Positions 7,652 to 33,278 are shown, counted from the stretch's first letter. The stretch is DNA of 35,607 bases from a bacterium (GCA_046757025.1 JBHHXN010000040.1:1-35607), one strand, 5' to 3'. The notes: generated by a model not told the origin, from the sequence alone. Numbers and translations are program-made.

Positions 7652-7655
7652 AACC

Positions 7656-10310: not shown

Positions 10311-10949
10311 ATGGAGCTTACCCAGAACTTAATTGCCAGAACCGCGCAAATTTGTCAGAATCTCAACATGAACGAATCAAACAACTTAGTGCTGATTCTG
10401 GAGCGTGCTTATTATACAGGAAATCAAATTTTTATTTTTGGAAACGGTGGCAGCGGAGCCACGGCTTCGCATTTCTGTGAGGACCTGGGCAAAGGCACAC
10501 TAAAGAGTCTCCACGATGAGACTCGCTTCAAAGTCATGAGCCTAACGGATAACGTTCCGTATATTCTGGCCTGGGCAAACGATGAAGGATACGACACCGT
10601 TTTTGAACAGCAGCTTCGTAATTTTGCGGAACCACACGATGTGGTCATCGGCATCAGCGGATCCGGCAACAGCCCGAATGTGCTCAAGGCCATCGATTAT
10701 GCCAACGCTCATAACATGATAACCGTCGGCATGACGGGGTTTAACGGCGGCGAGCTGAACAAACGGGTCATGCACCGGGTGCACGTACCGGTGAATGACA
10801 TGGGCATTGCCGAGTCCGTGCATCTGATCATCGTACACTACGTCGTTCAGGAGCTGGTTAGAAGGCTGCACACCAATGGCAAGTCGGCCATGAAGAAAGA
10901 AGAATTGGTGAAAAGCCAATCCCAGCCAGTGACGGTAGTCGAATTGTAA
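10311..10949 (+). CDS. gmhA: Sedoheptulose-7-phosphate isomerase (SIS domain)
   Basis: FGNGGSGATASH, AND.GY...FEQQL, ISGSGNSPNV, GMTG. Confidence 0.82.
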   Translation: MELTQNLIARTAQICQNLNMNESNNLVLILERAYYTGNQIFIFGNGGSGATASHFCEDLGKGTLKSLHDETRFKVMSLTDNVPYILAWANDEGYDTVFEQQLRNFAEPHDVVIGISGSGNSPNVLKAIDYANAHNMITVGMTGFNGGELNKRVMHRVHVPVNDMGIAESVHLIIVHYVVQELVRRLHTNGKSAMKKEELVKSQSQPVTVVEL

Positions 10950-10960
10950 TTTCTAAGAAA

Positions 10961-12538
10961 ATGAAAGTAAGATTAAAAGTATTGTTTTTGCTGCCTTTCC
11001 TGATCATTTTTGTGGAAACGGCACAGGCTGCTCAGGATGAAACGCTGCCAACCTACCACTGGGCGTACGAGTATCTGGATCAGCTCTGGCTGCGCGGCCA
11101 TTTTCAGGAGTTGTTTATCTTAAACCGTCCGTTCACTCGCGGCCAGATCGCTTCTGCGGTGGTTCTGCTCCGACAGGAAATGGCGGCGGGAAAGGTAGGT
11201 GAAAATGCCTACGAGCGCTGGCTTCTGCAAAAGCTGGAACAGGAATTTCGGACCGAAATAACCCAGCTCCGGCAAGACACTGCAAATGATTTGCTGATCG
11301 GAAGTTACATCAATCAGGGTGTGCACATTCGCAAAAGCAAATTCAACGATCAGACACAGCTCCGCAGCCGAATGAGTTTCAGTCCGTTGAAAAATCTCGC
11401 CATCATCAACACCATTTTGATCGACAATCGCCTGGATGAAAACCCATTTTACCAGGGCAAAAGGCGCTACAACATTGCCGGCTACACCGAGCAAGCCTAT
11501 CTGCGCTTTAGCTGGAAGCTGTTTCATGTCACCGTAGGTAGAGAATTTGTACGATGGGGCGCCGGCCACTCGGCAACCCTGCTGTTCTCCGATTCGGTGC
11601 GTCCGTTCGATTTGTTCAAGTTTAATCTTGGCCTTAAAAAGATCAAATTTACTTTCTTTACTGCCATGCTGGATGGCGTCACCGAGGACGTCATGATCAA
11701 CGATCTCCCACAGAGTGCGTTCGCCAACCGCTATCTGGCGGCGCATCGCCTTGATATAAAATTGACGAGCTGGTTTAATCTGAGTTTTACGGAGTCCATA
11801 CTTTACGGGGGCGTGGATCGCAATTTTGAATTTGCTTATTTGAATCCATTTTTATTTTATCACGGAAATCTGCTCAACGGTCCGGGACCGGGCAACACCA
11901 TTGGCGTGGTCGATTGGTACCTGACGCCGGTAAAAAACGCCGGATTTTATGGCTCCTTTATGATCGACGACATTCAATTAGACCACAAGCAAGTGGATGA
12001 CCTGGAACCCAACGAGCTGGGCTTGATAGTTGGAATAAAAGCCGCAGACTTGTTCTCTGTTGCTGGCAGCAACGTGCTGCTGGAATACACGCGCATCACC
12101 AACCGCACCTACAATTCCATGCACCGGCACGAGAAATATTTACACCGCAATTTTCCCATCGGCCACTATCTCGGCAATGATTTCGACCGCTGGCAGATTG
12201 AATGGCGGCAGTGGCTGAAAAAAAATCTCGAAGCAGCCGTCTCCATTGAGCAGATTCGCAAAGGAGAAGGCGACATGCGAAAGTCGTTCGACATGCCCTG
12301 GCGGAACTCCACTGTGGAGCAGGGGTATCGCGAACCGTTCCCCACCGGTGTCGTTGAACGCACACGGCTGGTTAATTTGCAGGTTTATTTTCATCCGCTT
12401 CGGCAACTGCGGTTTGCGGCCAGCACCCAGTACCAGAAAATAAGCAACTATTTGAATCAAACCGGTGTCAACCAGAGCGCCTGGACCTGGCAGCTCCGTG
12501 TTTGGTGGGCGCCTGAAATCAACATCGGCTTGCACTGA
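10961..12538 (+). CDS. Capsule assembly Wzi-family outer-membrane protein
   Basis: Signal peptide; RPFTRGQIA, GREFVRWGAG...LLFSD, AHRLD, FTESILYGG; beta-strand-rich C-terminus. Confidence 0.7.
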   Translation: MKVRLKVLFLLPFLIIFVETAQAAQDETLPTYHWAYEYLDQLWLRGHFQELFILNRPFTRGQIASAVVLLRQEMAAGKVGENAYERWLLQKLEQEFRTEITQLRQDTANDLLIGSYINQGVHIRKSKFNDQTQLRSRMSFSPLKNLAIINTILIDNRLDENPFYQGKRRYNIAGYTEQAYLRFSWKLFHVTVGREFVRWGAGHSATLLFSDSVRPFDLFKFNLGLKKIKFTFFTAMLDGVTEDVMINDLPQSAFANRYLAAHRLDIKLTSWFNLSFTESILYGGVDRNFEFAYLNPFLFYHGNLLNGPGPGNTIGVVDWYLTPVKNAGFYGSFMIDDIQLDHKQVDDLEPNELGLIVGIKAADLFSVAGSNVLLEYTRITNRTYNSMHRHEKYLHRNFPIGHYLGNDFDRWQIEWRQWLKKNLEAAVSIEQIRKGEGDMRKSFDMPWRNSTVEQGYREPFPTGVVERTRLVNLQVYFHPLRQLRFAASTQYQKISNYLNQTGVNQSAWTWQLRVWWAPEINIGLH

Positions 12539-12704
12539 TTCTTTTCTAAAATTACCTGCTTGCCCTGAAGCGTCCATTTGTGGTGGGTAGTCTCCCCGTT
12601 TTTCTTCCCTCATCCCCCCCCCAAAAAACTTTCCTGAATCGTTAATTCGTAATGGTTTCCCTGGTTTCACAAATTCCAGATGAAGAAGGTAAAATTCGTG
12701 TGCG

Positions 12705-12782
12705 GTCATTCCCGCAATCTTTTGAGCGGGAATCCATGCTGCCCGGCGCGACAAATGGATTTCTGCTACAAGCACGAATGAC
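12705..12782. repeat. REP-like palindrome (GTCATTCCCGC...GCGGGAATCCA...TGGATT...GAATGAC)
   Basis: Nested inverted repeats with GTCAT / ATGAC termini. Confidence 0.7.
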
Positions 12783-12927
12783 ATGGTGCTGAACTGTTAC
12801 GTTATTTCAAAGGCTGCGGTTTTTAAGTTGATTTTCGGTTTTTTTATTCTGGTTATTTCCCCATGGCCAGAATCTTAATTTTAGTGAAGAAACCGTGAGA
12901 TTACTCGGGCCGGGTGTTCACGCTTTA

Positions 12928-13106
12928 GAGGCTGTGTGAAAAATCGAAATGGTACCGAAAAACCCATTTCGCCGTTACTGTCATCCCGCAACCGCGGGCT
13001 CTTTTTAATAAACAGCACTTTACGTCCAAGCTAAAAAGATTCCTCCTGCTTGTCCCGCAAGGCGGGGAATGACAAAAGTCCGGAATCGGACTTTTCACAC
13101 AGGCTT
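12928..13106. mobile_element. MITE-like element, family B (179 bp) with TTTA target-site duplication
   Basis: TIRs GAGGCTGTGTGAAAA / TTTTCACACAGGCTT (13/15 match); TTTA at 12924-12927 and 13107-13110; contains a GTCATCCCGC...GGGAATGAC palindrome at 12980-13073. Confidence 0.78.
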
Positions 13107-13225
13107 TTTAGCGTGTTACTTTCTTCACCCCGGCTTGCTGAATTTCACCGATTTGCCATCGCGAATCTCCTGCGTTTTCATTACGACAATTCTCAAATTA
13201 TTGTAGGAATTACCACAAAAACTCC

Positions 13226-13253
13226 TTGACTTTTATCCTCAAAACATTAAATT
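13226..13253 (+). promoter_or_regulatory. Putative sigma70 promoter for the tRNA pair
   Basis: TTGACT-16 nt-TAAATT. Confidence 0.45.
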
Positions 13254-13299
13254 TGAGATGTCTTTTTTATAGATACTTCCGCACAGCGGAAATTGATTG

Positions 13300-13451
13300 G
13301 TGATTGAACGAAAACTATTAATAAAGTTGTCATTGCGAGTCCCGCGTTTTGTGCGGGACGAAGCAATCTCCTACCGAGCCTAATAGTGAGATTGCTTTCC
13401 CGAGAATCGGGACTCGCAATGACATGAATAATCGAGTTTTCGTTCAGACAC
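13300..13451. mobile_element. MITE-like element, family A copy 3 (inverted), carrying a GTCATTGCGAG...CTCGCAATGAC palindrome
   Basis: 13432-13453 is the exact reverse complement of 906-927; the other end GTGATTGAACGAAAAC is the reverse complement of 1023-1038; the interior is unrelated to copies 1 and 2. Confidence 0.78.
13329..13423. repeat. REP-like long palindrome
   Basis: Perfect 16-bp outer stem GTCATTGCGAGTCCCG / CGGGACTCGCAATGAC; 10-bp inner stem AAGCAATCTC / GAGATTGCTT. Confidence 0.85.
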
Positions 13452-13457
13452 TAATTA

Positions 13458-13530
<73 letters not shown>

Positions 13531-13602
13531 CGGAGGGTGGAGTTGTCGCGAAACCATTGTCGGGAATTTTTTTCCAAACCCAAATTGCATGATGTCCACA
13601 CT

Positions 13603-13675
13603 GCCACCGTAGCTCAAATGGTAGAGCAGCTGATTCGTAATCAGCAGGTTTCCGGTTCAAGTCCGGTCGGTGGCT
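13603..13675 (+). tRNA. tRNA-Thr(CGT), CCA not encoded
   Basis: Acceptor stem GCCACCG/CGGTGGC; anticodon loop TTCGTAA; T-loop TTCAAGT. Confidence 0.95.
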
Positions 13676-13726
13676 CAACCAAAAAACAGATCGCCATCCT
13701 ATTTAACCCAAAACCAAGAAAATAAA

Positions 13727-14656
13727 ATGTCGATGTACAAACGCTTGCCGTTCATATTGATTTTATCTTTGATTATTATTCTGCCTCTGCAATTAAAATC
13801 GCAGAGCGCCACCGGCTTTGAATTCTTACGAACGTCGGTTGGGGCGCGGCCCTCGGCCATGGCGGATGCCTTTATCGCCATCCCCGGCGACATTCACGAT
13901 ATCGTGTACAACCCCGCTGGTTTGGCCGCCCTTAGTGAGCGCCAGGGCACCGTCACCTATCTCAACCACCTTCTGGATTTTCAATCGGGCTTTTTTGCCT
14001 ATTCACAGCCATTCTCCAAAGGCAATTTAGCGCTGGGTTTGCATTTCATGGACTTCGGGCAATTTGAAGGCAAAGATGAAAACAATAACGATACTTCCGA
14101 TTTTAGCGCCAACAGTTTATCGTTTTCGGTGAGTTACGCTCGAAATGTTCTAAAAAATTTGTCGTTGGGAGGCAGCGCCAAATATATTCGTTTTCAAATC
14201 GATAATTTAACTGAAACCGCGGTGGCGGTTGATATTGGGGTCATTTACTCCTTACCAGATAAAAAGTTGAATTTTGGCGCCGGCGTGTTCAATTTGGGAA
14301 AAACAACCAGCGCTTTTCTGGTTACAAAAGACGACCTGCCGCTGAATATTCAAATAGGCGCTTCCAAAGAATTGGAACATCTACCGCTGATGGTCAGCGC
14401 CGCTCTGGTAAAATTTAAAGATGAAAGCATCGATTTCCGTATAGGGGGAGAATTTCTACTGTCGGAGAAATTGTTTTTACGACTTGGCTACAATTCTGTG
14501 GGGCAAGACCAGAAAGTGAAAACCGGCAAAGATGACTTGGCGGGATTTTCCGTAGGTCTGGGATTTAAATTAAACACTTTCAATATTGACTACTCATTTT
14601 CTTCTTTTGGCGAAGTCGGTTCTCTAAATCGTATTACTTTGATCGGACAATTTTGA
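13727..14656 (+). CDS. PorV/PorQ-family outer-membrane beta-barrel (T9SS-associated, FadL-like)
   Basis: Signal peptide; FL..SVGARPSAMADAF...YNPAGLA N-terminal motif; alternating beta-strands; terminal Phe. The ORF-track start at 13670 overlaps the tRNA, so ATG 13727 is preferred. Confidence 0.75.
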   Translation: MSMYKRLPFILILSLIIILPLQLKSQSATGFEFLRTSVGARPSAMADAFIAIPGDIHDIVYNPAGLAALSERQGTVTYLNHLLDFQSGFFAYSQPFSKGNLALGLHFMDFGQFEGKDENNNDTSDFSANSLSFSVSYARNVLKNLSLGGSAKYIRFQIDNLTETAVAVDIGVIYSLPDKKLNFGAGVFNLGKTTSAFLVTKDDLPLNIQIGASKELEHLPLMVSAALVKFKDESIDFRIGGEFLLSEKLFLRLGYNSVGQDQKVKTGKDDLAGFSVGLGFKLNTFNIDYSFSSFGEVGSLNRITLIGQF

Positions 14657-20568: not shown

Positions 20569-21744
20569 TTAAACTTTTCTTCTTAAATAAGCTGGCACAT
20601 CGTAGTCCTCATTGTTTTCTGTATCCGTTTTTTCTTCCGTAATTTGCTCATCAACGCTATCGGAGACCGCTCTTGGCGGCATGCGTTTAAAGGCCGGAAT
20701 ATCCAGATCATTCATGAAACTCTCCTGGATTTCCAGATAGCGCTTGCGGCCGTTGCCATTCAGCCCGCCGAATCGGCCGTTGCGGTTGAATCCCGTGGCG
20801 ATGACCGTCACTCGCAGCTCCTGCTCCATGCCCGGATCGATAACCGCGCCGAAGATCAAATTGGCCTCCGTACCTGCGGCCTCGGAAATGACCGAAGTGG
20901 CGTCGTTGACTTCATGCAGCGTCATATTCTCGCCCCCCGTCACATTCACGAGCACACCCAACGCCCCTTGAATATTTACATCCTCCAGCAGCGGACTGGC
21001 AATGGCCTGCTGGGCGGCTTCCAAAGAGCGATGTTCACCGGAGGCCACACCGGAGCTCATCAGTGCGTCGCCCATTTCCGACATGACGGTTTTGACATCG
21101 GCAAAATCCAGGTTGATCAGGCCGGGAATGGCGATTAAATCTGAAATGCCTTTGGTGGCCTGCAGCAACACTTCATCGGCAATTTTAAACGCCGAATTCA
21201 GCGGCGTGTCTTTGGGCACCACCGATAGCAGCCGCTGATTGGGGATCACAATCAAAGTATCCACCCGTTCCTTTAATTCATAGATGCCGTCGTCAGCCCG
21301 GCGCTGTCTTTTAGGACCTTCGAATTGAAATGGTTTGGTCACGATGCCGACGGTTAGCGCCCCCAAATCTTTGGCGATTTCCGCAACGATGGGCGCGGCG
21401 CCGGTACCGGTGCCACCGCCCATGCCAGCCGTGACAAATATCATGTCGGCATCGGAGAGTGCTTCGTACACCGATTCCCGGTCTTCTTCGATGGCTTTGC
21501 GGCCGATTTCGGGATTGGCTCCGGCTCCCAGGCCTTTGGTCAAATCGCGGCCGACCTGAACACGACTGGTGGCTTTGCACAAATTCAAGGCTTGCAGATC
21601 GGTATTTACGGCAATGAATTCGACCCCGTTTAAATTGGCTTCGATCATTCTGTTTATAGCATTGTTGCCGGCCCCCCCAACTCCAACGACTTTCATTTTG
21701 GCCGTCGAAGTCATATTTTCTTCAAAATCAAATCTGATATTCAT
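20569..21744 (-). CDS. ftsZ: Cell division protein FtsZ
   Basis: GGGTGTG tubulin signature; NLDFADV; C-terminal DVPAYLRR. Confidence 0.98.
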
Positions 21745-21796
21745 GGTTTACTCCTGATTTAATTTTCCTGTTTGACTTTCCCTTTTTGAAAATTTG

Positions 21797-23041
21797 TTAA
21801 TGATTAAATCTTTGAATGCTGCCGATCCAGCGGCGCATGCGCCCGATTATCCATTTAAACACATTGTGTTCATCTTTTTTTAGAAGATCATTTGCTTCGA
21901 ATTTGTGGTGGATACCGTAATGAACCAGTCCCACGCCGGTGGCGTGAATGGGACTCTGAGCCAGGTCTTTCAAACCGTTAAAATTACCGGGCACACCCAG
22001 CTTCACCGGCATGTCGAATATTTCTTCGGCCAGCTCCACGGTTCCGTTGAGCATGGAGCCGCCGCCGGTCAGCACCAGTCCCGACGTCATCAAATGCACA
22101 TAGTTCGATTTTTTGATTTCGCGATAAGCCAGACTCAGTATTTCCTCCATGCGCGGTTGGATGATGTCCACTAAATAGGCCTTGGAAATGCGCCGGGGTG
22201 CGCGGCCGCCCACGTCGGGCACTTCAATAGTTTGATCGCGGTCGCCGGGTTTATGAATGGCGCAGCCGTTGTGGATTTTAATCAACTCTGCCTGGTCCAC
22301 GGGTGTGCGAAAGCCGATAGCGATGTCGTTTGTGACGTTTTTACCACCGAGTCCCACCACCGCGGTGTGACGGATGCATCCTTCAAAAAACATGGCGATA
22401 TCGGTGGTGCCGCCGCCCAGGTCCATGACGATCACGCCCAGCTCTTTTTCGTCTTCACCCAGAACCGCATAACTGGAAGCCAGAGGCTCCAAAACCAGGT
22501 CCATCACATGAATGCCGGCGCGATCGATGCTGCGATAGATGTTTTGCGCCGAGGTGACGGCTCCGGTGACGATGTGTACCTCCGCTTCCAATCTCACGCC
22601 GGACATCCCTACCGGTTCTTTGATACCGTGCTGATCATCGACGGTGAACTCCTGAGGCAGAATGTGCAGAATTTCTCTATCGATGGGCAGCGCCACTGCT
22701 TTGGCCGCATCGATGACCCGGCGCACGTCGGCTTTGGTGATCTCGTTATCCGGTCCGGCAACCGCCACCACGCCGCGGCCATTGATGCTGCGTATGTGGT
22801 CGCCTGCGATGCCAGCAAAGACTTCTTTGATTTGCACGCCAGCCATTCGTTCGGCTTCTTCGAGCGCGTTTTGGATGGAGCGTACGGTTTTGTCTAAATT
22901 GACGACCACACCCCGTCTCAGGCCGTCTGAAGGACTGGTGCCCACCCCGATGATGGTGGGATCCATGTCCTCGTTGACTTCCGCGATAATGGCCCCGATT
23001 TTAGTAGTTCCAATATCAAGTCCAGTTACATACTCTGGCAT
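21797..23041 (-). CDS. ftsA: Cell division protein FtsA
   Basis: GLDIGTTK, PVGMSGVRLE, DLGGGTTD; amphipathic C-terminal helix. Confidence 0.97.
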   Translation of the reverse strand: MPEYVTGLDIGTTKIGAIIAEVNEDMDPTIIGVGTSPSDGLRRGVVVNLDKTVRSIQNALEEAERMAGVQIKEVFAGIAGDHIRSINGRGVVAVAGPDNEITKADVRRVIDAAKAVALPIDREILHILPQEFTVDDQHGIKEPVGMSGVRLEAEVHIVTGAVTSAQNIYRSIDRAGIHVMDLVLEPLASSYAVLGEDEKELGVIVMDLGGGTTDIAMFFEGCIRHTAVVGLGGKNVTNDIAIGFRTPVDQAELIKIHNGCAIHKPGDRDQTIEVPDVGGRAPRRISKAYLVDIIQPRMEEILSLAYREIKKSNYVHLMTSGLVLTGGGSMLNGTVELAEEIFDMPVKLGVPGNFNGLKDLAQSPIHATGVGLVHYGIHHKFEANDLLKKDEHNVFKWIIGRMRRWIGSIQRFNH

Positions 23042-23080
23042 TTAATTTATACCTCCTTTAGAACCACCGCTGATGGTGAA

Positions 23081-23869
23081 TTAGCTTTGAATAGCATTTT
23101 TTACGACAACCTGTCCTTCAAACCGCAAATCTAAATATTCGATTTCAGACCATTTTTTTTCCTGATCTAAAATGTTCAGTACTTCCTGTAGATTGTGGCC
23201 TTTTGTCCGGTAATCATTTTCTCCCATAAAAACCGGTATGGCGCCTTGCGCCAGGTAGCAGTACACCCCGTATTTAGGGGAATAGGATATTTCAGAGATT
23301 TCGCTGTAAAAAGTGAACTGGTGCTCCTTGATTTCTTTTAAAAATCCCAGAATGATGGCCAGCTCATTGTTTGGCGCGCTGCTATCGTCCACTTCGCTGA
23401 TATGTGAGATGATGGGATAATCGTGCAGCATGCTCAGACGATACTTTGTGAAGATGTTGCCGTTTTCATCGATGGGAAATAACGTCGATTTGTTTAGCAG
23501 GGCAATGGGCTCGTTTTCCACGACCTCGATAACGATGCTCGACGGCAACCGCCGGCTGACTTCGGCACGGTTTATCAACGGATGCTGCTCCACGCTTTTT
23601 TTGATTCTACTCAGATCGATATTGAAAATATTTTTTGATGAATCGACGGCCACCAGACTTAACACTTCAGTGTCCGAAAGCAGCCGATTGCCCTCTACTT
23701 TCATTTCTTTGAATTTCAGCACTTCGTTTGCGATCATCCAGGCGGAGAATTTCAAAATTAAAAGCGTGGTGGTGGTGAGGATTAAAAATAACCAGCCCAA
23801 CCCACGCAGGGTGATGAGTCTTGCGTTGGTTTTTTTGTGAAGCGTGCCGTATTTTGAGTAAACCATCAT
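23081..23869 (-). CDS. ftsQ: Cell division protein FtsQ/DivIB
   Basis: Single TM, POTRA domain (V.GN..LS...V; P.I..AEVSRRLP), C-terminal YLDLRFEGQVVV; upstream of ftsA. Confidence 0.9.
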   Translation of the reverse strand: MMVYSKYGTLHKKTNARLITLRGLGWLFLILTTTTLLILKFSAWMIANEVLKFKEMKVEGNRLLSDTEVLSLVAVDSSKNIFNIDLSRIKKSVEQHPLINRAEVSRRLPSSIVIEVVENEPIALLNKSTLFPIDENGNIFTKYRLSMLHDYPIISHISEVDDSSAPNNELAIILGFLKEIKEHQFTFYSEISEISYSPKYGVYCYLAQGAIPVFMGENDYRTKGHNLQEVLNILDQEKKWSEIEYLDLRFEGQVVVKNAIQS

Positions 23870-23900
23870 TTTGTATGTTTCTGATTAAGAATTAAGCAAA

Positions 23901-25007
23901 TCATTGAATTAGCGTGGCAATTTTATCCATGATGTCGCGCGCGGCGTGCGGCCTGGCCAATTTTAGTGCCGCCGCAGACATGGCCGTTCGTTTCTGGGGA
24001 TCGTCTAAAAGTTCTGCCACCGTTTGAGTTAATGTTTCTGCGTTTAAATTTTTTTCCAGAATCATGATGGCGGCGCCCACCTGCTCCATGGTGCGAGCGT
24101 TAAATTCCTGGTGGCCGGCTGCCGCATAGGGGTACGGAATCAAAATCGCTGGTAAGCCGCAGATGGCGATTTCTGCCAGGGCCGAAGCGCCCGCCCGGCA
24201 AAGAACCAGGTCCGCGGCAGCATACGCCGCACCCATGTCTTCGATGAAAGCCAGGGCACGCACCCGTTCCTGGAATTTTTCACATCGGGTTTTGATGTCC
24301 GACAAATCTTTGGCTCCGGAGGCCCAGAGAATTTGGAGATCTTTTAATTTCATCAGAGATTCAAGGCTCTCTAACACTTGTCTATTTATGGCATATGCCC
24401 CCTGACTACCGCCGAATATGAGCAGGGTGGTTTTATTCATATTTAATTGAAATTTTTTCAACGCCGCGGTTTTGTCCAGTTTGGAGATTTCACCGCGCGA
24501 AGGATTGCCGCTCACGAATACATTTTTTTGTTTTTTAAAATGCGATTCAGAAGCCTCGTAGGTTAGGTGAACCTGATTTACCCGGTTGCCGAGCACTCGG
24601 TTGACCAGTCCCGGATAGCTGTTCTGCTCTTGAATGACGGTGGGTATGCCGAAAGCCAGACCCATCATGAGCGCCGGCCCACTCACGTAACCACCGGTGC
24701 CGACAACCACGTGGGGTCGGAAGCGCAGCAGGTAAAATGCGCACTGTAAAAGGCTCACCAGCAGGCGCAGCGGGAACATCAGATTGCTGAAACTGATTTT
24801 ACGCTGCAAGCCGCGCATCCATATTTTTTTGAAAATGTAGGACGTTTGGGGAAGTACTTTGCTTTCGATCCCGTATGACGTCCCGATAAACATGATTTCT
24901 GTTTTCATTCTTTTTTCAAACTCCTGTGCCAGCGCGATGGCCGGATACAGATGCCCGCCGGTGCCACCGCCAGCAAAAAGTACTCTAATGACGCCGGAGC
25001 TGCCCAT
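23901..25007 (-). CDS. murG: Lipid II N-acetylglucosaminyltransferase MurG
   Basis: GGGTGGHLYP, GTGGYVS, EQN, GGSQGA, RAGAS, HQEFNA. Confidence 0.97.
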   Translation of the reverse strand: MGSSGVIRVLFAGGGTGGHLYPAIALAQEFEKRMKTEIMFIGTSYGIESKVLPQTSYIFKKIWMRGLQRKISFSNLMFPLRLLVSLLQCAFYLLRFRPHVVVGTGGYVSGPALMMGLAFGIPTVIQEQNSYPGLVNRVLGNRVNQVHLTYEASESHFKKQKNVFVSGNPSRGEISKLDKTAALKKFQLNMNKTTLLIFGGSQGAYAINRQVLESLESLMKLKDLQILWASGAKDLSDIKTRCEKFQERVRALAFIEDMGAAYAAADLVLCRAGASALAEIAICGLPAILIPYPYAAAGHQEFNARTMEQVGAAIMILEKNLNAETLTQTVAELLDDPQKRTAMSAAALKLARPHAARDIMDKIATLIQ

Positions 25008-26160
25008 AACCACCCGATGGATGATTGCTTTGATAGCGGTTTTTTTTGCGATACAAACGACTTCGTTCTCGAAGCTGTAATGTGATATTCAGGAGAATTC
25101 CCATGCCGAACAAGTTCACGATGAGCGCGGATCCGCCATAGCTCAGAAAAGGCATGGGGAGGCCGGTCGTGGGCAATAGATTGACCACCACGCCGGCGTT
25201 GGCAATGGCGTAGATGGCGATGTTCAAAACAATGCCCACGCCCAGTAGTTTGCCCGCCGGCTCCGGCATTTGCATGGATAATTTGAATCCACGCCAGATC
25301 AAAATACTAAAGAGGAGTAGGATGGCGAGGGTTCCCACCAGCCCCAGCTCCTCGCCGATGATGGCGTAGATAAAATCGGTAAAAGGGTCGGGCAAAAAGT
25401 GATATTTCTGCCGGCCGCTGCCCAAGCCCAGCCCCCAAAAACTGCCGTTACCCAGCGCGATGAGCGATTGTTGAATCTGCCAGCTCACATCCTCGCCTTT
25501 GAGGGAGGCGAGGTACTGCAGCACCCTTTGTTTCTGATAGCTGTTTTGAGATAACATCATTAAAAAAGCCGGAAATATGGTAAAGCAGAGCAGAAAAAGA
25601 TAGCGCAGTTTGTCGCCGGCGATAAAAATCAACGTCAAGGCGATCAGAATGATCAAAGTGGCAGTACCGACATCCGGCTGAAAAAAGAGGGGGAAAACCA
25701 TGACACCGATGATGCCGAGATTTAAAAAGAAGCGGTTTTCAGCATTTTGATGAATAAATAATTGCCGTCCTAAAGTGGCGCTCAAAAAGAGAATCAATCC
25801 GATGCGCGCAAAATCAGAAGGTTGAACTTGAAATGCCCCGATTGTGAGCCAGCGCTTGCTACCTCGAATGGCTTCCACGCCGGGCGCAACCACCAGATAA
25901 ATTAACGCCAGTAAGGTCAAAAATAACAGTCCGGGCGATATTTTTAACCACAAATGGTAATCGATGCGCGAAACGATCAACATCAGAAAAAAACCAAACA
26001 AGACCTTGTAAAAATGACTGGTTAAAAAATAACGACTGTCCTTGTGGGTTTCCAGAGCTTTGAAAGAGCTGGCGCTGTAAACCATCACCACTCCCAGCAC
26101 CAGAAGCACCACCACCACGATAAAAAGGGTCGAATCAAATTTGAAGGTGTTTTCAAACAT
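24985..26160 (-). CDS. ftsW: SEDS peptidoglycan polymerase FtsW
   Basis: Multi-TM; MVYSAS, QPSD, QPDVGT, TDFIYAIIGEELG, MPFLSYGGS. Confidence 0.93.
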   Translation of the reverse strand: MFENTFKFDSTLFIVVVVLLVLGVVMVYSASSFKALETHKDSRYFLTSHFYKVLFGFFLMLIVSRIDYHLWLKISPGLLFLTLLALIYLVVAPGVEAIRGSKRWLTIGAFQVQPSDFARIGLILFLSATLGRQLFIHQNAENRFFLNLGIIGVMVFPLFFQPDVGTATLIILIALTLIFIAGDKLRYLFLLCFTIFPAFLMMLSQNSYQKQRVLQYLASLKGEDVSWQIQQSLIALGNGSFWGLGLGSGRQKYHFLPDPFTDFIYAIIGEELGLVGTLAILLLFSILIWRGFKLSMQMPEPAGKLLGVGIVLNIAIYAIANAGVVVNLLPTTGLPMPFLSYGGSALIVNLFGMGILLNITLQLRERSRLYRKKNRYQSNHPSGGYGQLRRH

Positions 26161-26168
26161 AAACGTAC

Positions 26169-27254
26169 TCAACGAATTTTAAAAGTACTAAGACTGAACA
26201 GCACCAGTAAGATGGCGATGATCCAGAACCGCACCACCACTTTCGGCTCGGCCCAGCCGGATAATTCAAAGTGATGATGGATGGGCGCCATTTTAAACAG
26301 CCGTTTGCCCGTTCGTTTGAAATACAAAACCTGAATGATAACGGACAGACTCTCAGCCACAAACACGCCGCCAATGATGATCAGCAGCAGTTCCTTTTTT
26401 AATAAAATGGCCAGGGTGCCGACGGCGCTGCCCAGGGACAAGGCGCCGGTGTCGCCCATGAACACCTGTGCCGGGTGAGCATTGTACCAGAGAAATCCCA
26501 GCGCGCCTCCCACCAGAGCCGCACAGTAAACCGTGAGCTCGCCTGCCCCATCCAGATAAATGATGTTCAGATAATCGCTGAAATCCACGCGACCGGAAAC
26601 ATACGCGATGGCGGCCCAGGCCAAACCGGAAATGCCGATCAAACCGATGGCGAGGCCATCTAATCCGTCCGTAAGATTGACGGCGTTTGAGGTGGCGGTG
26701 ATGACAAATATCACCATAGGAATGTAAAACACTCCGAAATCGATTTCATAGTCCTTAAAAAAAGGCATAGTGCTTAGCGTGTTGATGCCTTCATACCGAG
26801 GTGAAAAATACAGGGTCAGCCCGATAATCGCGCCCAAACTTAATTGGCCCAGAAGCTTGTATCGGGCCACCAAACCTTTGGGGACTTTTTTAACGGATTT
26901 TAAATAATCGTCCACAAAACCAACCACTCCCATCCAAATGGTTGAAATTAGAATGAGCGTAATGTAGATGTTGTCTATTCTTGCCCACAGCAAGGTGGGG
27001 AGCACCACCGCTGCCAGAACGATCAAACCACCCATGGTGGGGGTGCCGGCTTTTTTTAAATGCGACTGGGGTCCGTCTTCGCGAATCTCTTCACCGATTT
27101 GATGCTGCCGCAGTTTTTTGATGATATACGGCCCCACGATAAAACTGATGAGTAAGGCCGTGATCGCGGCCCAGGCAGAGCGAAAGGTGATGTATCGAAA
27201 AAGGTTGAAACCCGAGATGATCTCTCTTAACGGATAAAACAGATAGTAGAACAT
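26169..27254 (-). CDS. mraY: Phospho-N-acetylmuramoyl-pentapeptide transferase MraY
   Basis: GTPTMGG, GFVDD, NAVNLTDGLDGL, VFMGDTG, MAPIHHHFE. Confidence 0.98.
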   Translation of the reverse strand: MFYYLFYPLREIISGFNLFRYITFRSAWAAITALLISFIVGPYIIKKLRQHQIGEEIREDGPQSHLKKAGTPTMGGLIVLAAVVLPTLLWARIDNIYITLILISTIWMGVVGFVDDYLKSVKKVPKGLVARYKLLGQLSLGAIIGLTLYFSPRYEGINTLSTMPFFKDYEIDFGVFYIPMVIFVITATSNAVNLTDGLDGLAIGLIGISGLAWAAIAYVSGRVDFSDYLNIIYLDGAGELTVYCAALVGGALGFLWYNAHPAQVFMGDTGALSLGSAVGTLAILLKKELLLIIIGGVFVAESLSVIIQVLYFKRTGKRLFKMAPIHHHFELSGWAEPKVVVRFWIIAILLVLFSLSTFKIR

Positions 27255-27284
27255 GTCACGATATATAGTTAGTTAATTTTACTA

Positions 27285-27313
27285 AAGATACCATATATTG
27301 AACCAAATGTCAA
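27285..27313 (-). promoter_or_regulatory. Internal sigma70 promoter upstream of mraY
   Basis: Minus strand TTGACA-17 nt-TATCTT with extended -10 TG. Confidence 0.7.
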
Positions 27314-27384
27314 GAAAAATAATCTAAATATCGATTATAGTTGTTTGTTTAAAAAATACTTAACAAGCTTTTTTCAGGAAAAAT

Positions 27385-28791
27385 TCAGCCATGGATTTGA
27401 TCATCCCGCTCTTCCTGCAGCAGCGCTTGGATCACTTCCTCCATTTTCATGCCGCGGGAACCTTTCACCAGCACTAGATCGCCTTTATCGAGATGCGTTT
27501 TCAGGAAACTCACGAGTTCGGCCTTGTCTGTAAAATGCTCAGCAGTGATAACAGGTGTCTTCCTTCTGGCGCTATCCACTGCGGCTGCCGTTTCCGGGCC
27601 AAACGCCAGAAACACCGCCACGCCGAAATCGTTCAGCGCCGCACCGATGCGGGTGTGCTCCGTTTTGGACTGCTGCCCGAGCTCTAACATGTCTCCAAAC
27701 ACAAAGATTTTTTTACCAGCAACCGGGGTATTTTTTAAAATGCTCAATGCCGCCAGCGTCGAGTCCGGATTGGCGTTGTAGCTGTCGTTTAAAATCAACA
27801 TTTTTTCTTTGCGAATGATTTGCATGCGCTTCGATGGCAATTGGACGTTTTCAAGGGCCTGTTTGATGTCGGGCATGTCCACACCGAATTCCAAGCCAAC
27901 AGCCACCGCTGCCAGGGCGTTGGACAGATTGTGCTCACCGGGCATATTCAGCACGATGGTCTGATTTTCTACTCGCATCCCGATGGTCTGTGGATCGTCC
28001 AGGCTTAGCTTTTGCGCTGAAATATCGGCTTCATCCTTGAAGCCGTAAGTGACACAACGGCGCAGCTTCGGTACCTGTTTTGTTATCAAGGCGTCATCCA
28101 AATTGATGAACGCCAGGCCTTCTGGCTGTAAATATTCAAACAACTCTATTTTGGCTCTAGCCACCCCTTCCAGGCTTTGTAGAAATTCCAGATGCCCGTG
28201 CCCGATATTGGTGATCAAGCCACAGGTGGGCGCCGCAATTTCGCACAATTGCCGGATTTCTCCGAAATGGTTCGTGCCCATTTCTAACACCAGCGACTGG
28301 TGCGAAGCACGCAGTTGGAAAAGCGTCAGCGGTACGCCGATATGGTTGTTGAAATTGCCTTCGGTTTTACAAACGTTACCTGACCTGGAAAGCACGGCTG
28401 CGATCATTTCTTTGGTAGTGGTTTTACCGTTGGTGCCCGTCAACCCTAAAATGGGGATGGCGAACTTTTTTCTGTATGCATGTGCCGCCTGTTGCAGCGC
28501 CGTCAGAGTATCCTCCACCGCCAGAAGGGCTTTGCCAGCCAAGTCCTTAGGGTGTTTTTGCCGCCATTTTTTTTCTACCACTGCGGCGATGGCCTGTTTG
28601 TTAAAAATCTCCCGCAAAAATTTGTGCCCATCGTGGTGCTCACCCTTGATGGCAAAATAAAGTTCGCCAGGCTGAATTTCCCGCGAGTCGATGGAGATGC
28701 CGGCGATCACCATTTGCAAAGCTTCCGTTGGACCGGAGTACAGAAATCGGTAGTCCGGGTTGTCGTAGATTTCTTGCAGGGTCAATTTCAT
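27385..28791 (-). CDS. murF: UDP-MurNAc-tripeptide:D-Ala-D-Ala ligase MurF
   Basis: TGTNGKTTTKE, GNFNNHIGVPLT, EMG, NDSYNANP, GDMLELG, LVKGSRG. Confidence 0.95.
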   Translation of the reverse strand: MKLTLQEIYDNPDYRFLYSGPTEALQMVIAGISIDSREIQPGELYFAIKGEHHDGHKFLREIFNKQAIAAVVEKKWRQKHPKDLAGKALLAVEDTLTALQQAAHAYRKKFAIPILGLTGTNGKTTTKEMIAAVLSRSGNVCKTEGNFNNHIGVPLTLFQLRASHQSLVLEMGTNHFGEIRQLCEIAAPTCGLITNIGHGHLEFLQSLEGVARAKIELFEYLQPEGLAFINLDDALITKQVPKLRRCVTYGFKDEADISAQKLSLDDPQTIGMRVENQTIVLNMPGEHNLSNALAAVAVGLEFGVDMPDIKQALENVQLPSKRMQIIRKEKMLILNDSYNANPDSTLAALSILKNTPVAGKKIFVFGDMLELGQQSKTEHTRIGAALNDFGVAVFLAFGPETAAAVDSARRKTPVITAEHFTDKAELVSFLKTHLDKGDLVLVKGSRGMKMEEVIQALLQEERDDQIHG

Positions 28792-28826
28792 GGCATTTTA
28801 TCGTAGATAGCTCAGAAAGCCGCCCC

Positions 28827-31001
28827 TTAGCTTTGATTTAGTTTTTGGATGTTGATTCGAGGTGCGCATTCGATCATGCAGCGAGCGCCCACTTTGAGTT
28901 TCGTACCCACTGCCGGTTCCTGTCGCACCACTTTTCCTTCCCCATAGATTTTCACTTTTAAGCCACGAATGGTCAGTTCTGTCACCGCTTTGCGCAGAGA
29001 AAAGCCTCGCAAGTCGGGCATGGTTGTGTAGCCTGACGCATCCGGAAAAGATGTGAGCTTGATTCGAATTTGAGGTTTTTTATTTTTTTCTGTTGCGATT
29101 ACCAGTTTCAAATGCTCAACAATATCGCCCTCGCCTTCGATTTCCGGTTGAATATCGAGATCCTTTAAAATATGCAGAGCCGTTTCGATTCGCCTTCCCT
29201 GTAAATCGGGAATGAGTCGGGTGTTTAAGATTTGTGGCGCTGGCGTCGCTTCAGCGTAGTGCCTTTTTACTGGCTGGGCGTAAATTTTCAAAATTTGCTG
29301 CAGAATATTTCGGAATGCCGGCGCCGCGACGTTTCCGCCCGAATGCACCGGAAATGGCTCGTCGATGTTGATGTAAATGAGCAGTCTGGCATTTTCAGCT
29401 GGATAAAAGCCCGCAAACGAGGCCACAAATTTCGAATCGGAATAACCCAGTCGGCCGCGCAGCGGTTTTTGAGCGGTGCCGGTTTTACCTGCAATTTTGA
29501 GGTTTGGGATTTTTGCTGAAGTACCTGTACCCATCTCTACCACCTCTTCCAGAATGTCTATCATTTTGACCGCACTGGTTTTGTCCATCACCTGCCGAAT
29601 TTTTTGCGGATGATAGCTTGCCACGATTTTGTTTTCCTGATTTCTAATTTCCTTGATGATCATGGGTTTCATGAGTTTGCCGCCGTTGGCGATGGCGCCG
29701 TAGGCCATGGCCACCTGCAGCGGCGTTACAGCCACTTCGTGTCCGTATGAGATAGCCGCCAGTGAAAAGTCCGACCACTCAAACGGTTTTTTCAAAATCC
29801 CGCCAACTTCACCGGGCAGCTCAATGCCGGTTTTAATTCCGAATCCGAAATATCGAGAGGCGTTGAACAGGGCATCTTTTCCGACTTCACGGGCAATCTT
29901 GGCGGTGCCAATGTTACTGGAATAGGTGAACACTTTGCGCACGGTCAGCCATGCATGCTTTTTGGAATCGTTGATCTCTTCTCCGAACATGGTCACTTTG
30001 CCGTTTTCACAGTAAACGATATCGTTGAGATCTTTTTTGCCCTCGGTAATGGCGGCCATCATGGTGACGATTTTATAAGTTGATCCCGGCTCGAAAATAT
30101 CTGTGATGGCACGAATTCGCCAGTTCTCAGGTGGGTAGTTTTTCGCGTTGTTGGCGTCGAATCCCGGCGCCGATGCCAATGCCAATATTTCACCGGTATT
30201 GGGATCGGTGATGATGACGCTGCCGCCTTTGGCATTGAATTTCTTGACGGTTCTGTTTAATTCGTCCTCCGCAATGGTTTGCAGCACATTGTCGATAGTC
30301 AGAATGAGGTTTTTACCGCTTTTTTGTTTTTCCGTTTCCGCCACAATGGGTGCGATAAAATTGCCTTTGGCGTCCTTCTGGTAGAGACTTTTGCCGTCCT
30401 TGCCAGTGAGGACCGTGTCGTACGCCAGCTCGAGCCCGCTGATGCCGCGACCGTCCACATCCACGAAACCGATCACCTGAGCTAATTTATCATTCAGAGG
30501 ATAAATGCGTTCACTGGTTTCAGCAATGCTGATGCCGGGGATGTTCAAGAGCTGAATCAACGACACTTTTTCTTTTTCGACTTTTCTTGCCACCATGATA
30601 AAATCATTCCCATCCCGAATCTTTGCGTACAATGCGCGTTGGTTCAGATCCAATATTTTTGCTAATTTCTGTGAAGTGGCAGCCAGATCTTTCGCCTGCC
30701 GCCTGTGCAGTCCGATGTCGTAACAAGCTCGATTTAAGGCTACCGGCATCATGTTGCGGTCGTAAATTAAACCCCGCTCAGCTTTATCCATTAAAATCCG
30801 TGTGTACTGTTCCTTTGCCAGCTTAATATATTTTTTGTTGTCGATCACCTGGATTTGCACCAGACGCACGAATATCGTCAGGATGGCCAGAATCAGAAAA
30901 GTGCGAACCAGATAAAATCGCCAGACTTTTTCCGTGGGAACCTCAGAAATAGCTACCCTGCGGCGCCGGGGTTGTTGCGAAGAAAATTTACGGTATCTCA
31001 T
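28827..31001 (-). CDS. ftsI: Class B PBP FtsI/PBP3 with two C-terminal PASTA-like domains
   Basis: RGLIYDR, EPGSTYK (SxxK), SSN, KTGTAQ; IPDLQG and MPDLRG PASTA starts. Confidence 0.93.
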   Translation of the reverse strand: MRYRKFSSQQPRRRRVAISEVPTEKVWRFYLVRTFLILAILTIFVRLVQIQVIDNKKYIKLAKEQYTRILMDKAERGLIYDRNMMPVALNRACYDIGLHRRQAKDLAATSQKLAKILDLNQRALYAKIRDGNDFIMVARKVEKEKVSLIQLLNIPGISIAETSERIYPLNDKLAQVIGFVDVDGRGISGLELAYDTVLTGKDGKSLYQKDAKGNFIAPIVAETEKQKSGKNLILTIDNVLQTIAEDELNRTVKKFNAKGGSVIITDPNTGEILALASAPGFDANNAKNYPPENWRIRAITDIFEPGSTYKIVTMMAAITEGKKDLNDIVYCENGKVTMFGEEINDSKKHAWLTVRKVFTYSSNIGTAKIAREVGKDALFNASRYFGFGIKTGIELPGEVGGILKKPFEWSDFSLAAISYGHEVAVTPLQVAMAYGAIANGGKLMKPMIIKEIRNQENKIVASYHPQKIRQVMDKTSAVKMIDILEEVVEMGTGTSAKIPNLKIAGKTGTAQKPLRGRLGYSDSKFVASFAGFYPAENARLLIYINIDEPFPVHSGGNVAAPAFRNILQQILKIYAQPVKRHYAEATPAPQILNTRLIPDLQGRRIETALHILKDLDIQPEIEGEGDIVEHLKLVIATEKNKKPQIRIKLTSFPDASGYTTMPDLRGFSLRKAVTELTIRGLKVKIYGEGKVVRQEPAVGTKLKVGARCMIECAPRINIQKLNQS

Positions 31002-31308
31002 GAAAAGCCTCACTATCAAGAAAAATCAATCCTAAATCTTCCTGAGCTATTTTATGAATGCGATCGAAGCTGGAAAGCTTGATATATTCTGCTTGCAGCC
31101 GATCGTTTTCTCGCTTTTGTTGGCGGATGGTTTGCTCAAGCAATTGGATTTCCGCTAATTCCAAATTGATTTGCACTTTTAACCAGACGTAGAAAATCAT
31201 CACTACCAGTCCGAAAAAAATGCTTCCAAATAGTTTGAGTTTTGGAAATCTCTTCTTCGACGGTGAAACGATCCGCGATTTGACTATGGGAATTTTTTTG
31301 TATTTCAC
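30988..31308 (-). CDS. ftsL: Cell division protein FtsL
   Basis: Basic N-terminus, one TM, coiled coil, LSS.DRI.KIA..LGL; directly upstream of ftsI. Confidence 0.8.
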   Translation of the reverse strand: MKYKKIPIVKSRIVSPSKKRFPKLKLFGSIFFGLVVMIFYVWLKVQINLELAEIQLLEQTIRQQKRENDRLQAEYIKLSSFDRIHKIAQEDLGLIFLDSEAFHEIP

Positions 31309-31338
31309 GATTTCCCTGTGCCGGCATAATGGCGTTGA

Positions 31339-31530
31339 TTAGCGAAAATTCCAGAATAAAATCAATACCATACCGAACCATCCAAAAAACAGCACAAGTT
31401 TAACTGCTCTGTTTAGAGTAAGAGACGGCTGAGTTCTTCTGAATTCCAATAAAATCGGGAATGCCAAAAACACCACCGCAATCAAAATCAGTCCCCAGAT
31501 AAAAACATTGCCTATGATCACTTCCAACAT
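31339..31530 (-). CDS. Small hypothetical two-TM membrane protein (63 aa)
   Basis: AAGGAG RBS before ATG; two hydrophobic segments; co-oriented inside the dcw cluster. Confidence 0.6.
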   Translation of the reverse strand: MLEVIIGNVFIWGLILIAVVFLAFPILLEFRRTQPSLTLNRAVKLVLFFGWFGMVLILFWNFR

Positions 31531-31631
31531 TCGGTTACTCCTTTACTTCTCTTGAATTTCGATTTTTTCATTCTCCAGTTTGATTTGTCTCTTCTATTGG
31601 TGCAAAAGCTAATGGATCTTTTTTAGTTGCC

Positions 31632-32579
31632 TCAACTTGATGTGTGCGAAACAGTCGGCAGCAATTCGGCCGCCCGCAAGCGAACACTGCGGCTTCTTGG
31701 GTTGCATTGTATTTCCTGCTCGCTGGCTTGAACGGCGCGCTTGGTCAATATTTTCAACCGCCCAGTATGTCCGCAAACGCACAGCGGTAAATTTGGCGGG
31801 CACACACATCGTTCCGCTTCGCGTTTAAAAAAGTTTTTAACCATGCGATCTTCTAACGAATGGTAGCTCAGAACCACAATGCGACCGGATTCGGCAAGAT
31901 AATCCAGGCACGTGTTCAACACTTCGGATAAATTACTCAGCTCGTCGTTTACCGCAATGCGCAAAGCTTGAAATATTCTTGCCAGCGACTTGACTCGCTG
32001 CTGAAATGGCAAAGCGCGGCTGACCACTGCCTGAAGATCCCTTGTCGTGCAAATTGCCGCCCGTTGTCGTTCTTTGACGATCATTCTGGCCACGCTTTTG
32101 TATCTTTTTTCCTCGCCAAATTCACGAAACAATCGCGCTAACTCTTGCTCTGAATAGGTGGTGACGATATCAAAAGCGGTTAATGATTGTTTTTTACTCA
32201 TCCGCATATCGAGCTTTGCCGTTGAAGAGAAGCTAAAACCACGTTCTGCGGTGTCGATCTGGTGCGAGGAAACCCCCAGGTCCAGCAAAATGCCATTTAT
32301 TTTGTCGATGTTTAAACTGTGTAAAATTTTATTAAACTCTTTATAATTAGCTTGTTTGATAACCAATTTATTTTTATATTTCCGCATCAGCTGTTGATTT
32401 GCAAAGCGGACGGCTTCTTCATCCAAGTCCAGTGCGATCAGCCGGCCCGGTTTATCCAATCTTTCCAGGATGGCGCGCGCGTGGCCGCCGCCGCCGAGGG
32501 TCCCGTCGACGTAAACGCCATCAGGCCGGGTGACCAGCAAGTCAACCGCCGGCGTTAGTAAGACGGGCTCATGAAACAT
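31632..32579 (-). CDS. rsmH: 16S rRNA m4C1402 methyltransferase RsmH/MraW
   Basis: HEPVL, DGTLGGGGH, DLGVSS, LDMRM, FQALRIAVN, SYHSLEDR, NPRSRS. Confidence 0.97.
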   Translation of the reverse strand: MFHEPVLLTPAVDLLVTRPDGVYVDGTLGGGGHARAILERLDKPGRLIALDLDEEAVRFANQQLMRKYKNKLVIKQANYKEFNKILHSLNIDKINGILLDLGVSSHQIDTAERGFSFSSTAKLDMRMSKKQSLTAFDIVTTYSEQELARLFREFGEEKRYKSVARMIVKERQRAAICTTRDLQAVVSRALPFQQRVKSLARIFQALRIAVNDELSNLSEVLNTCLDYLAESGRIVVLSYHSLEDRMVKNFFKREAERCVCPPNLPLCVCGHTGRLKILTKRAVQASEQEIQCNPRSRSVRLRAAELLPTVSHTSS

Positions 32580-32728
32580 GGCCTTGTTGCATGGTTTTCG
32601 ATAACAAAATTCATCGCTGGTTTACTCACCGGCATCCGTCTAAAAAATTGGCCGATTTTGTGTTACTTTATATTAAGTTGATAACTGTAAGGTGAACGGT
32701 TACAAATCCCCGTTAAGTTCGCGTTAAA

Positions 32729-33175
32729 TTAAATTCCAAATTCCTCGAATTCTTCGCGTATAGATTGTTCTTCAGGTTCTTGGGAGATTTCATCGTAGGA
32801 TTCAGGATTCCAAAGTTGCAATGTATCCACGGCGCCGATAATCTTCACTTTTTTTTCGATGCCTGCGTGTTTGTAGTAGTCGGTTGGAATGTTAATTCTT
32901 CCTTGATTGTCCAGGTTTATCTCAGTCGTGTTCGCACCAATTAAGCGTCGAAATCGTTTCGCTTTGGGCCCGCCATGGGGCAGGTCAGCGATTTTTGCGC
33001 CAATTCGTGCATTCCAGACGTTGTTGGGATAGAGCGTTAAATAATTCTCAGGTTCTTTGGTAATAAAAAAATGGCTATGGCCGAGATCTTCCATGATTTT
33101 CCGATACTTCGCCGGAATACTGAGCCGGTTATTGTCATCGATGGTATTCTCGTATGTGCCAAGAAAATATGCCAT
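32729..33175 (-). CDS. mraZ: Division/cell wall cluster transcriptional regulator MraZ
   Basis: FLGTYENTIDDNNRLSIP and LDNQGRINIP repeats; first gene of dcw; start at ATG 33175. Confidence 0.93.
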   Translation of the reverse strand: MAYFLGTYENTIDDNNRLSIPAKYRKIMEDLGHSHFFITKEPENYLTLYPNNVWNARIGAKIADLPHGGPKAKRFRRLIGANTTEINLDNQGRINIPTDYYKHAGIEKKVKIIGAVDTLQLWNPESYDEISQEPEEQSIREEFEEFGI

Positions 33176-33210
33176 GCTGATTTTACTTGATTTAGGAAAA
33201 ATGATTGGGG

Positions 33211-33278
33211 CGATCTCCATCTCTTCCCGGATTATCCCATTACATCCCAAACGTAACCAAATTATCCCAAAAAGTCAA
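33211..33278 (-). promoter_or_regulatory. dcw promoter with a 10-bp-phased array of MraZ boxes
   Basis: Minus strand TTGACT-17-TACGTT; repeats TGGGA, TGGTT, TGGGA, TGGGA, CGGGA, TGGAG at exact 10-nt period. Confidence 0.75.

Follow-up and report, generated by a model that had tools for sequence, protein, structure and literature searches.

The window analysed here is a stretch of 35,607 nucleotides (nt) from an uncultured bacterium (GCA_046757025.1 JBHHXN010000040.1:1-35607), and its minus strand carries a division and cell wall (dcw) cluster in the order mraZ-rsmH-(63-aa ORF)-ftsL-ftsI-murF-mraY-ftsW-murG-ftsQ-ftsA-ftsZ. The canonical order is ftsI-murE-murF-mraY-murD-ftsW-murG-murC-(murB/ddl)-ftsQ, and MurC, MurD and MurE add L-Ala, D-Glu and meso-diaminopimelate (mDAP; DAP below) in successive steps. 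The longest open reading frame (ORF) of mraZ spans 32729..33250; its TIGR00242 match (98.1 bits against a cut-off of 98.35) begins at residue 29, and the true start probably lies about 25 codons downstream of the longest-ORF start. Next come rsmH (31632..32579, above the TIGR00006 cut-off), a hydrophobic ORF of 63 amino acids (aa) with two hydrophobic stretches (31339..31530), for which the fetched loci of relatives held no real homologue, and ftsL (30988..31308), recognised by its position and a TIGR02209 score of 39.9 bits, slightly below the cut-off of 42.45. The class B penicillin-binding protein gene ftsI (28827..31019) is separated by 35 nt (28792..28826), the normal murE slot, from murF (27385..28791), which encodes an unfused protein of 468 aa scoring 444.9 bits on TIGR01143 against a cut-off of 288.6. 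The genes mraY (26169..27254, above the TIGR00445 cut-off) and ftsW (24985..26172, best matched by TIGR02614 at 327.5 bits, slightly below its cut-off) overlap by 4 nt (26169..26172) where murD would normally lie. Between murG (23901..25013, above the TIGR01133 cut-off) and ftsQ (23081..23869, assigned by position and a PRK05529 match at E 7e-11), the normal murC-murB slot is reduced to 31 nt (23870..23900). The cluster closes with ftsA (21797..23041) and ftsZ (20569..21744), above the TIGR01174 and TIGR00065 cut-offs, respectively.

Misassembly at these junctions is ruled out by contigs of individual sequencing runs that bridge them and by the identical order in relatives. Logan contigs of public hydrothermal-vent metagenomes span ftsI/murF in 4/4 runs, and mraY/ftsW and murG/ftsQ in 3/4 runs each; the four runs come from one study, and three of them may be the source of the window DNA. 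A mur fusion within the window is excluded by the length and profile scores of murF, which passes the murF cut-off and stays below those of the murE, murD, murC and mpl profiles. Of 12 class members inspected for the arrangement ftsI-murF-mraY-ftsW without murE or murD, 11 show it directly; in the remaining one, the ORF caller masks the genes and the spacing accommodates only murF and mraY. A canonical cluster with murE, murD and murC is present in 2/2 genomes of families f17 and f20. The gene order, tight junctions and unfused neighbours described in the original prediction, which was made from the window's sequence, are borne out, with mraY and ftsW overlapping slightly where they had been described as abutting.

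The genome that carries the window (G000; 5.96 Mb in 374 contigs, 94.8% complete) probably belongs to KSB1/Zhuqueibacterota, judging by the KSB1 labels on close homologues of its transferase (see below); the accessible part of PMC11683472 describes this phylum as having no cultured member. The class consists of free-living bacteria with genomes of 2-10 Mb. Gene presence was scored with seven queries on an identical set of 113 phylum genomes, each at least 90% complete: 87 of the class, 6 of families f14/f15 and 20 of families f16-f22. True murC, defined by E 1e-123 or better with a single weaker match counted as Mpl-type, occurs in 0/87, 1/6 and 20/20 genomes of these groups, respectively; the corresponding counts are 0/87, 0/6 and 20/20 for murI, 4/87, 1/6 and 20/20 for murD, and 33/87, 2/6 and 20/20 for murE (excluding a 3′ fragment in G000). 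An Mpl-type match, one per genome, is found in 84/87, 6/6 and 0/20, and dapB in 37/87, 3/6 and 15/20. Incomplete assemblies cannot account for absences on this scale; in the closed genome G075, murE, murA and murB are present, and murC, murD and murI were not found. The dcw cluster of the window is the normal state of its lineage: no MurC or MurI is found there, and MurD and MurE have mostly disappeared. Since neither murC nor murI was found in any of the 87 class genomes, the class must begin its wall peptide by some other route.

Only four Mur-domain genes were detected in G000, namely murF, murD, an Mpl-type ligase gene and folC. The murD gene is full length (452 aa; 418.5 bits against a cut-off of 212) and lies on contig C213. 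It directly follows a murE that runs off the contig, with only its final ~37 codons seen (76% to a relative's MurE), and dapA-dapE-dapB-dapD come after it. Three runs cover C213; in these, its read depth equals that of the dcw contig, and their assemblies end 33-207 nt beyond. The genes murA and murB lie together on C189, ddl on C21 and an ordinary alr on C13, and dapA/B/D/E/F are present. No murC was found in this genome, where tblastn with the MurC of two relatives matches only Mpl (29%), nor did any gene exceed the murI cut-off. Searches by tblastn and hidden Markov model (HMM) returned no D-amino-acid transaminase (Dat) or other IlvE/Dat-family transaminase, an absence that assembly gaps might account for; G000 does have one gene resembling Asp racemases (C5) and another, scoring below cut-off, that resembles DgcA/YcjG (C100). 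The suggestion of three separate clean losses therefore fails for G000: simple relocation suffices for murD, murE and murB, though not for murC or the supply of D-Glu. The broader proposal that the stem tripeptide is made differently stands across the class, not as a simple loss in G000 itself. The relocated murE-murD of G000 is probably redundant or a salvage remnant. A second wall locus recurs after a PorV-like gene in several relatives, holding murE or murD with lysC-murA-murB or dapA in varying combinations (L021/G075, L279/G073, L022/G001, L005/G000), which suggests early relocation followed by piecemeal loss.

The Mpl-type ligase of G000, encoded on contig C49, scores 430 bits on TIGR01081 and 350 bits on the murC profile, and Mpl also outscores MurC for the proteins of G075, G027 and G029 and for one verrucomicrobial protein; the four class proteins were scored singly, and the remaining genomes were assigned by E-value band. 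Mpl-specific residues listed in the accessible part of PMC3060825 (the Y-x-A-F-F-D-K loop, D-F-A-H-H, E-P-R and S-N-G) are invariant or nearly so in 22/22 aligned proteins. The same part of that study reports that Mpl prefers the DAP tripeptide ~200-fold over L-Ala-D-Glu, and still more over L-Ala. The class enzymes share ligase family and motifs with the Mpl of murein tripeptide recycling in E. coli and Psychrobacter arcticus (TIGR01081; PMC3060825, in part), and their putative reaction is alike, joining L-Ala-γ-D-Glu-DAP to UDP-MurNAc (MurNAc, N-acetylmuramic acid) to give the product used by MurF. In those species, Mpl supplements MurC, MurD and MurE, whereas in the class it is the sole candidate for the first bond and the peptide source is likely biosynthetic. 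An Mpl that adds a preformed tripeptide had been among the options raised for this window, and it is among those favoured by the evidence. No peptide ligase was found near mpl in neighbourhoods from 22 genomes. A conserved protein of ~160 aa, R3H-like by eye, follows mpl in 19/22 loci (L006, L019, L028-L047), and Maf-like and helix-turn-helix genes precede mpl in most of the 22.

Because G000 retains murD and part of murE, Mpl could instead act there as MurC, adding L-Ala, with the relocated MurD and MurE continuing and a racemase supplying D-Glu. Specificity residues of MurD were placed by what we take to be E. coli MurD numbering. The intact MurD of G000 carries the D-Glu-type residues TPDH and NDSK (specificity residues per the accessible part of PMC8788868), and its gene adjoins dap genes at a depth equal to that of the dcw contig. 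Also in favour of this explanation, the G000 Mpl exceeds the murC cut-off as well (350 against 335 bits), and PaMpl is reported to have slight L-Ala activity, 0.7 against 260 per min (PMC3060825, in part). However, the G000 Mpl has the Mpl-specific tripeptide-site motifs, murE of G000 is seen only as a 3′ fragment, and the explanation is inapplicable to the 83/87 class genomes that lack murD yet carry the same Mpl (43-65% identical across the class). We therefore consider relocation with an L-Ala-adding Mpl improbable.

A set of three genes stands out as a candidate source of the tripeptide. A loose ATE_C search gave one weak match in each of five class genomes, and in G000 the corresponding gene closes a one-strand trio on contig C161: a PurD-derived ATP-grasp ligase (5328-6659), a second Alr-type racemase (6709-7842) and an ATE1-fold transferase (7927-8730). 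In the lineage survey, the transferase is found in 57/87 class, 3/6 f14/f15 and 0/20 f16-f22 genomes, the ligase in 51/87, 2/6 and 0/20, and the cluster-type racemase (E<1e-100) in 35/87, 2/6 and 0/20, all 37 racemase-bearing genomes having the ligase or the transferase. Among 84 transferase loci, mostly metagenomic and often incomplete, the fetched flank includes the racemase in 63 and the ligase in 36. An ATP-grasp gene correlating with the mur losses had been anticipated, and the ligase behaves as one: in the 93 Mpl-type genomes it is carried by 43/57 murE-negative and 10/36 murE-positive members (Fisher p 1e-5, a value that ignores the kinship of genomes and so overstates the correlation). 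In G075, ligase and transferase terminate a same-strand run dapB-dapA-dapF-dapL-lysA, and in G071, G073 and G074, like G075 members of family f9, dapB lies at most 9 kb away on the same strand.

The transferase is modelled with a predicted local distance difference test (pLDDT) score of 83, and its top Foldseek match is human ATE1 (E 3e-9). Its fold matches are, in order, ATE1 (VIA Z 13.4, root-mean-square deviation 3.4, 201 aligned), then aaPGS (L-PGS)/MprF and FemX (Z 10.6), all of them aminoacyl-tRNA-dependent; a sequence search of the PDB with the transferase profile found nothing. For klAte1, the accessible part of PMC9351520 gives Y303/K304 as catalytic, R80 (in GFRR) as binding the acidic N-terminal acceptor, and S255/S273/E277/Y289 as the donor pocket. 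When mapped to klAte1 in two steps through a canonical Bpt, transferase residues Y201/K202 correspond to Y303/K304 and are invariant in 36/36 sequences, and the donor pocket, with Tyr(Phe)/Met/Ala/Ile(Leu) at its four positions, is bulkier than that of Ate1 or Bpt. This mapping suggests that the donor is small and neutral and that the acceptor is not a protein N-terminus. The transferase thus shares with Ate1/Bpt (PF04377; PMC9351520, in part) and FemX the fold, the catalytic Tyr-Lys and the non-ribosomal formation of an amide bond from aminoacyl-tRNA. Unlike Ate1/Bpt, it has neither the acidic-acceptor Arg nor the Bpt Cys-rich motifs, has a different donor pocket, falls below the Pfam cut-off and is encoded alongside a racemase and a ligase. 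This is a broad family, with 594 representatives at 50% identity, and no fused transferase was found among longer proteins, which is weak evidence. One distant relative (P0356, 809 aa) is fused to phosphoenolpyruvate-utilising (PPDK_N) domains.

The ligase is homologous over its whole length to PurD, and PurD proteins are its sole relatives in the PDB. However, it scores 113.6 bits on TIGR00877, far below the cut-off of 288, its N-terminal GGREHA motif is replaced, and G000 has a separate true purD on C3. The cluster racemases differ from the ordinary Alr of G000 by R308G, C310A, Q313A and S291R in 66-68/68 sequences, at positions that we take to lie near the substrate and line the pocket.

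We judge it an even call that this set makes L-Ala-γ-D-Glu-DAP, which Mpl then attaches to UDP-MurNAc. In the proposed route, the racemase would first make D-Glu in place of MurI. The ATP-grasp ligase would couple the γ-carboxyl of D-Glu to meso-DAP (or Lys) in place of MurE, and the transferase would then put L-Ala from Ala-tRNA on the α-amine of Glu in place of MurC and MurD. Mpl would ligate the resulting tripeptide to UDP-MurNAc made by MurA and MurB, after which MurF, Ddl, MraY and MurG would act as usual. Aminoacyl-tRNA donates solely the α-carboxyl of an L-amino acid, so in a standard stem the transferase could form only the Ala-Glu bond. Activation of a γ-carboxyl is possible for ATP-grasp enzymes, and such an activity would accord with the ligase's complementarity to murE as well as with its association with dap genes. 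The presence of a racemase in the set likewise fits the loss of murI, and families f4, f6 and f13, which do not have the set, carry Dat instead.

The set recurs in a second phylum. From a sample of 79 Mpl loci of other phyla, 50 Mpl-bearing genomes (completeness not stated) were given a whole-genome test; the transferase was found in 4/50, leaving out a weak G169 match that is a canonical Bpt. All four are Verrucomicrobiota and none has murD above cut-off, whereas 0/41 murD-positive genomes, among them one flagged as unpublished (G141), carry the transferase. The three-gene set recurs in Verrucomicrobiota without murC. In the order of G121, for which homologues bear the label Limisphaerales, the transferase occurs in 45/121 genomes; among the first five listed with it, murC is found in 0/5 and murD in 1/5, and among the first five listed without it, murC in 2/5 and murD in 4/5. 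This trend agrees with replacement of mur genes by the set, in a small sample with exceptions: G172 keeps murD and murE, and G177 has murF, mpl, folC and nothing else. Retention of murD without murC or transferase in G171 and G181 speaks for an Mpl that adds L-Ala ahead of MurD, as considered above for G000. A diverged murD-like ORF (30%, below cut-off) is present in G125. In two loci of transferase-positive Verrucomicrobiota, L305 (G125) and L324 (G174), a strongly diverged murD follows mraY and a murE-like stretch lies upstream of murF at the locus edge; possibly, these mur genes are caught in ongoing decay. Taken across lineages in at least two phyla, de novo synthesis of the stem tripeptide without MurC, MurD, MurE or MurI, by a pyridoxal phosphate-dependent racemase, a PurD-derived ligase and an Ate1-fold enzyme with Mpl as an essential biosynthetic ligase, is a proposal we hold tentatively, at slightly less than even weight.

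Several observations weigh against the de novo route, in addition to the overstated correlation noted above. The assignments of all three set enzymes amount to guilt by association. The racemase scores above the Alr cut-off (352 against 168 bits on TIGR00492) as a second copy besides the ordinary alr, and its putative specificity for Glu is drawn only from the pocket substitutions. The position of klAte1 R80, aligned by eye through the GF motif, which falls outside the stretch matched by hhalign, is Leu (GFLP) in 36/36 transferases, which weakens the argument from family membership for an acidic acceptor. The set lies near mpl in just 1/84 transferase loci. Both ligase and transferase are missing from 31/93 Mpl-type genomes, which the set does not explain; murC and murD are absent from 30 of the 31 (G041 retains both), and in 9 murE is missing as well, so mur genes can be lost without the set. 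In other phyla, 5/9 murD-negative genomes have no transferase. Conversely, four genomes with the transferase (G000, G001, G013 and G172) retain murD and murE as well, and G000 has many salvage genes in addition. Finally, dapB is missing from 27/53 ligase-positive genomes, which would therefore need imported DAP or another third residue.

The first of these points also bear on a different role, in which the product of the set is a side-chain bridge or some other peptide with D-amino acids, and the set is tied to the Mur losses only indirectly. As a Fem-like transferase with a racemase and an ATP-grasp ligase, the set would resemble the D-Asp ligase system of enterococci, and the closeness of FemX in fold, the Alr-like score of the racemase and the missing acidic-acceptor Arg would all suit such a role. 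It accounts neither for the set's complementarity to murE nor for its lack in murC/D-complete genomes of two phyla, and an ordinary alr and a ddl are present separately in G000; we regard it as quite improbable.

The dap and recycling genes raise the main rival to the de novo route, that the stem peptide is not made at all: foreign wall fragments would be imported and re-attached by Mpl, and the set would do something else. Among the Mpl-type genomes, 30/93 have neither murE nor dapB, and 23 are murE-positive without dapB. The DNPR motif of MurE, which we take to be DAP-specific, is kept in 18/18 MurE sequences examined, in keeping with salvage. G000 has matches to ldcA, ampD, nagZ, anmK, murQ, a NamZ-like gene and two peptide ATP-binding cassette (ABC) systems, and AmpG-like genes occur in 4/5 genomes tested. 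Muropeptide dependence has also been demonstrated by culture in a neighbouring phylum, where Fidelibacter multiformis IA91 is unable to synthesise MurNAc, D-Ala, D-Glu or DAP and needs muropeptides (accessible part of PMC11652737). Like G000, IA91 and its class AB16 (Fidelibacterota) are free-living members of the FCB group that miss peptidoglycan synthesis genes and keep recycling genes. Unlike IA91, G000 does not show loss of MurNAc, D-Ala and DAP synthesis, as murA, murB, alr, ddl and dapA/B/D/E/F were found; lysC, asd and ampG gave no tblastn or HMM match in G000, where assembly gaps are possible. G000 also carries the three-gene set. Salvage gives no reason for the lack of the set in 20/20 murC/D/E/I-complete genomes and in 41/41 murD-positive genomes of other phyla, or for its position inside a DAP run in f9. 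We consider salvage as the only source of the peptide unlikely, though far from negligible, and de novo synthesis, salvage, relocation and bridge formation can coexist. Two further G000 loci touch on this subject. At C86:14293-20963, anmK-murQ follow genes resembling amgK and murU by eye, a candidate MurNAc salvage cluster, and at C18:30885-34496, a second Ddl-like ATP-grasp gene lies beside a gamma-glutamyltranspeptidase-like gene; a second Ddl-like match occurs in 3/5 genomes tested.

Another alternative early stem-peptide route without MurI is the MurD2/MurL pathway of Xanthomonas (PMC8788868, in part), which still relies on MurC, MurE and a paralogue of MurD working on the UDP-sugar. The Mur-domain matches that were inspected include no MurD2-type ligase, no MurL query having been made, and the MurD of G000 is of the D-Glu type. 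Other candidates were set aside. Ten extra Mur-domain matches of relatives, inspected as possible hidden MurD, are CapB-like, MurF itself or MurF-like proteins in redox or glycosylation loci. A universal Ala-Glu epimerase route is rejected because the closed genome G075 has no enolase-family match. Tracking of murE by dapB is rejected as well, since their distributions do not follow each other. A BshC-like lead yielded only ordinary BshC in 5/5 genomes and one match at E 0.019, in a search that did not cover the families without the set.

Some further observations concern the Mur proteins of the lineage and the rest of the window. MurE sequences of f4, f6, f7, f11, f13 and f15 form a separate long-stemmed clade with support 100/100 (loci L017, L285, L283, L284, L282, L288, L287, L286, L290, L020 and L289); the genomes that carry it are mostly without the three-gene set, murC, murD and murI, and their source of L-Ala-D-Glu is unexplained. 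A MurD tree of 9 rows did not separate inheritance from transfer. MurF-like proteins without the N-terminal domain lie inside electron transfer flavoprotein (ETF)/hydrogenase regions in f5 genomes and G026 (L015, L307, L308). The window also holds surface-polysaccharide genes at 12-14656, comprising glycosyltransferases, FkbH, a heptose kinase and isomerase, Wzi and a PorV/PorQ-family gene.

To our knowledge, MurC, MurD and MurE are regarded as near-universal and essential for peptidoglycan. We located no publication describing the three-gene set or mur loss in KSB1, in a search that left most subscription papers outside. The finding is a variant of peptidoglycan precursor synthesis that may well be an undescribed de novo route, though we stop just short of calling this probable. 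The three enzymes are small and soluble, and their proposed reactions are open to in vitro or E. coli complementation tests. If the proposal is wrong, the class would likely consist of wall-fragment scavengers and form a new group of large size. If it is true, the stem peptide would be made de novo in a second way, with wall synthesis coupled to Ala-tRNA at its first bond, and genomes called 'wall scavengers' for their missing mur genes may have been misread.

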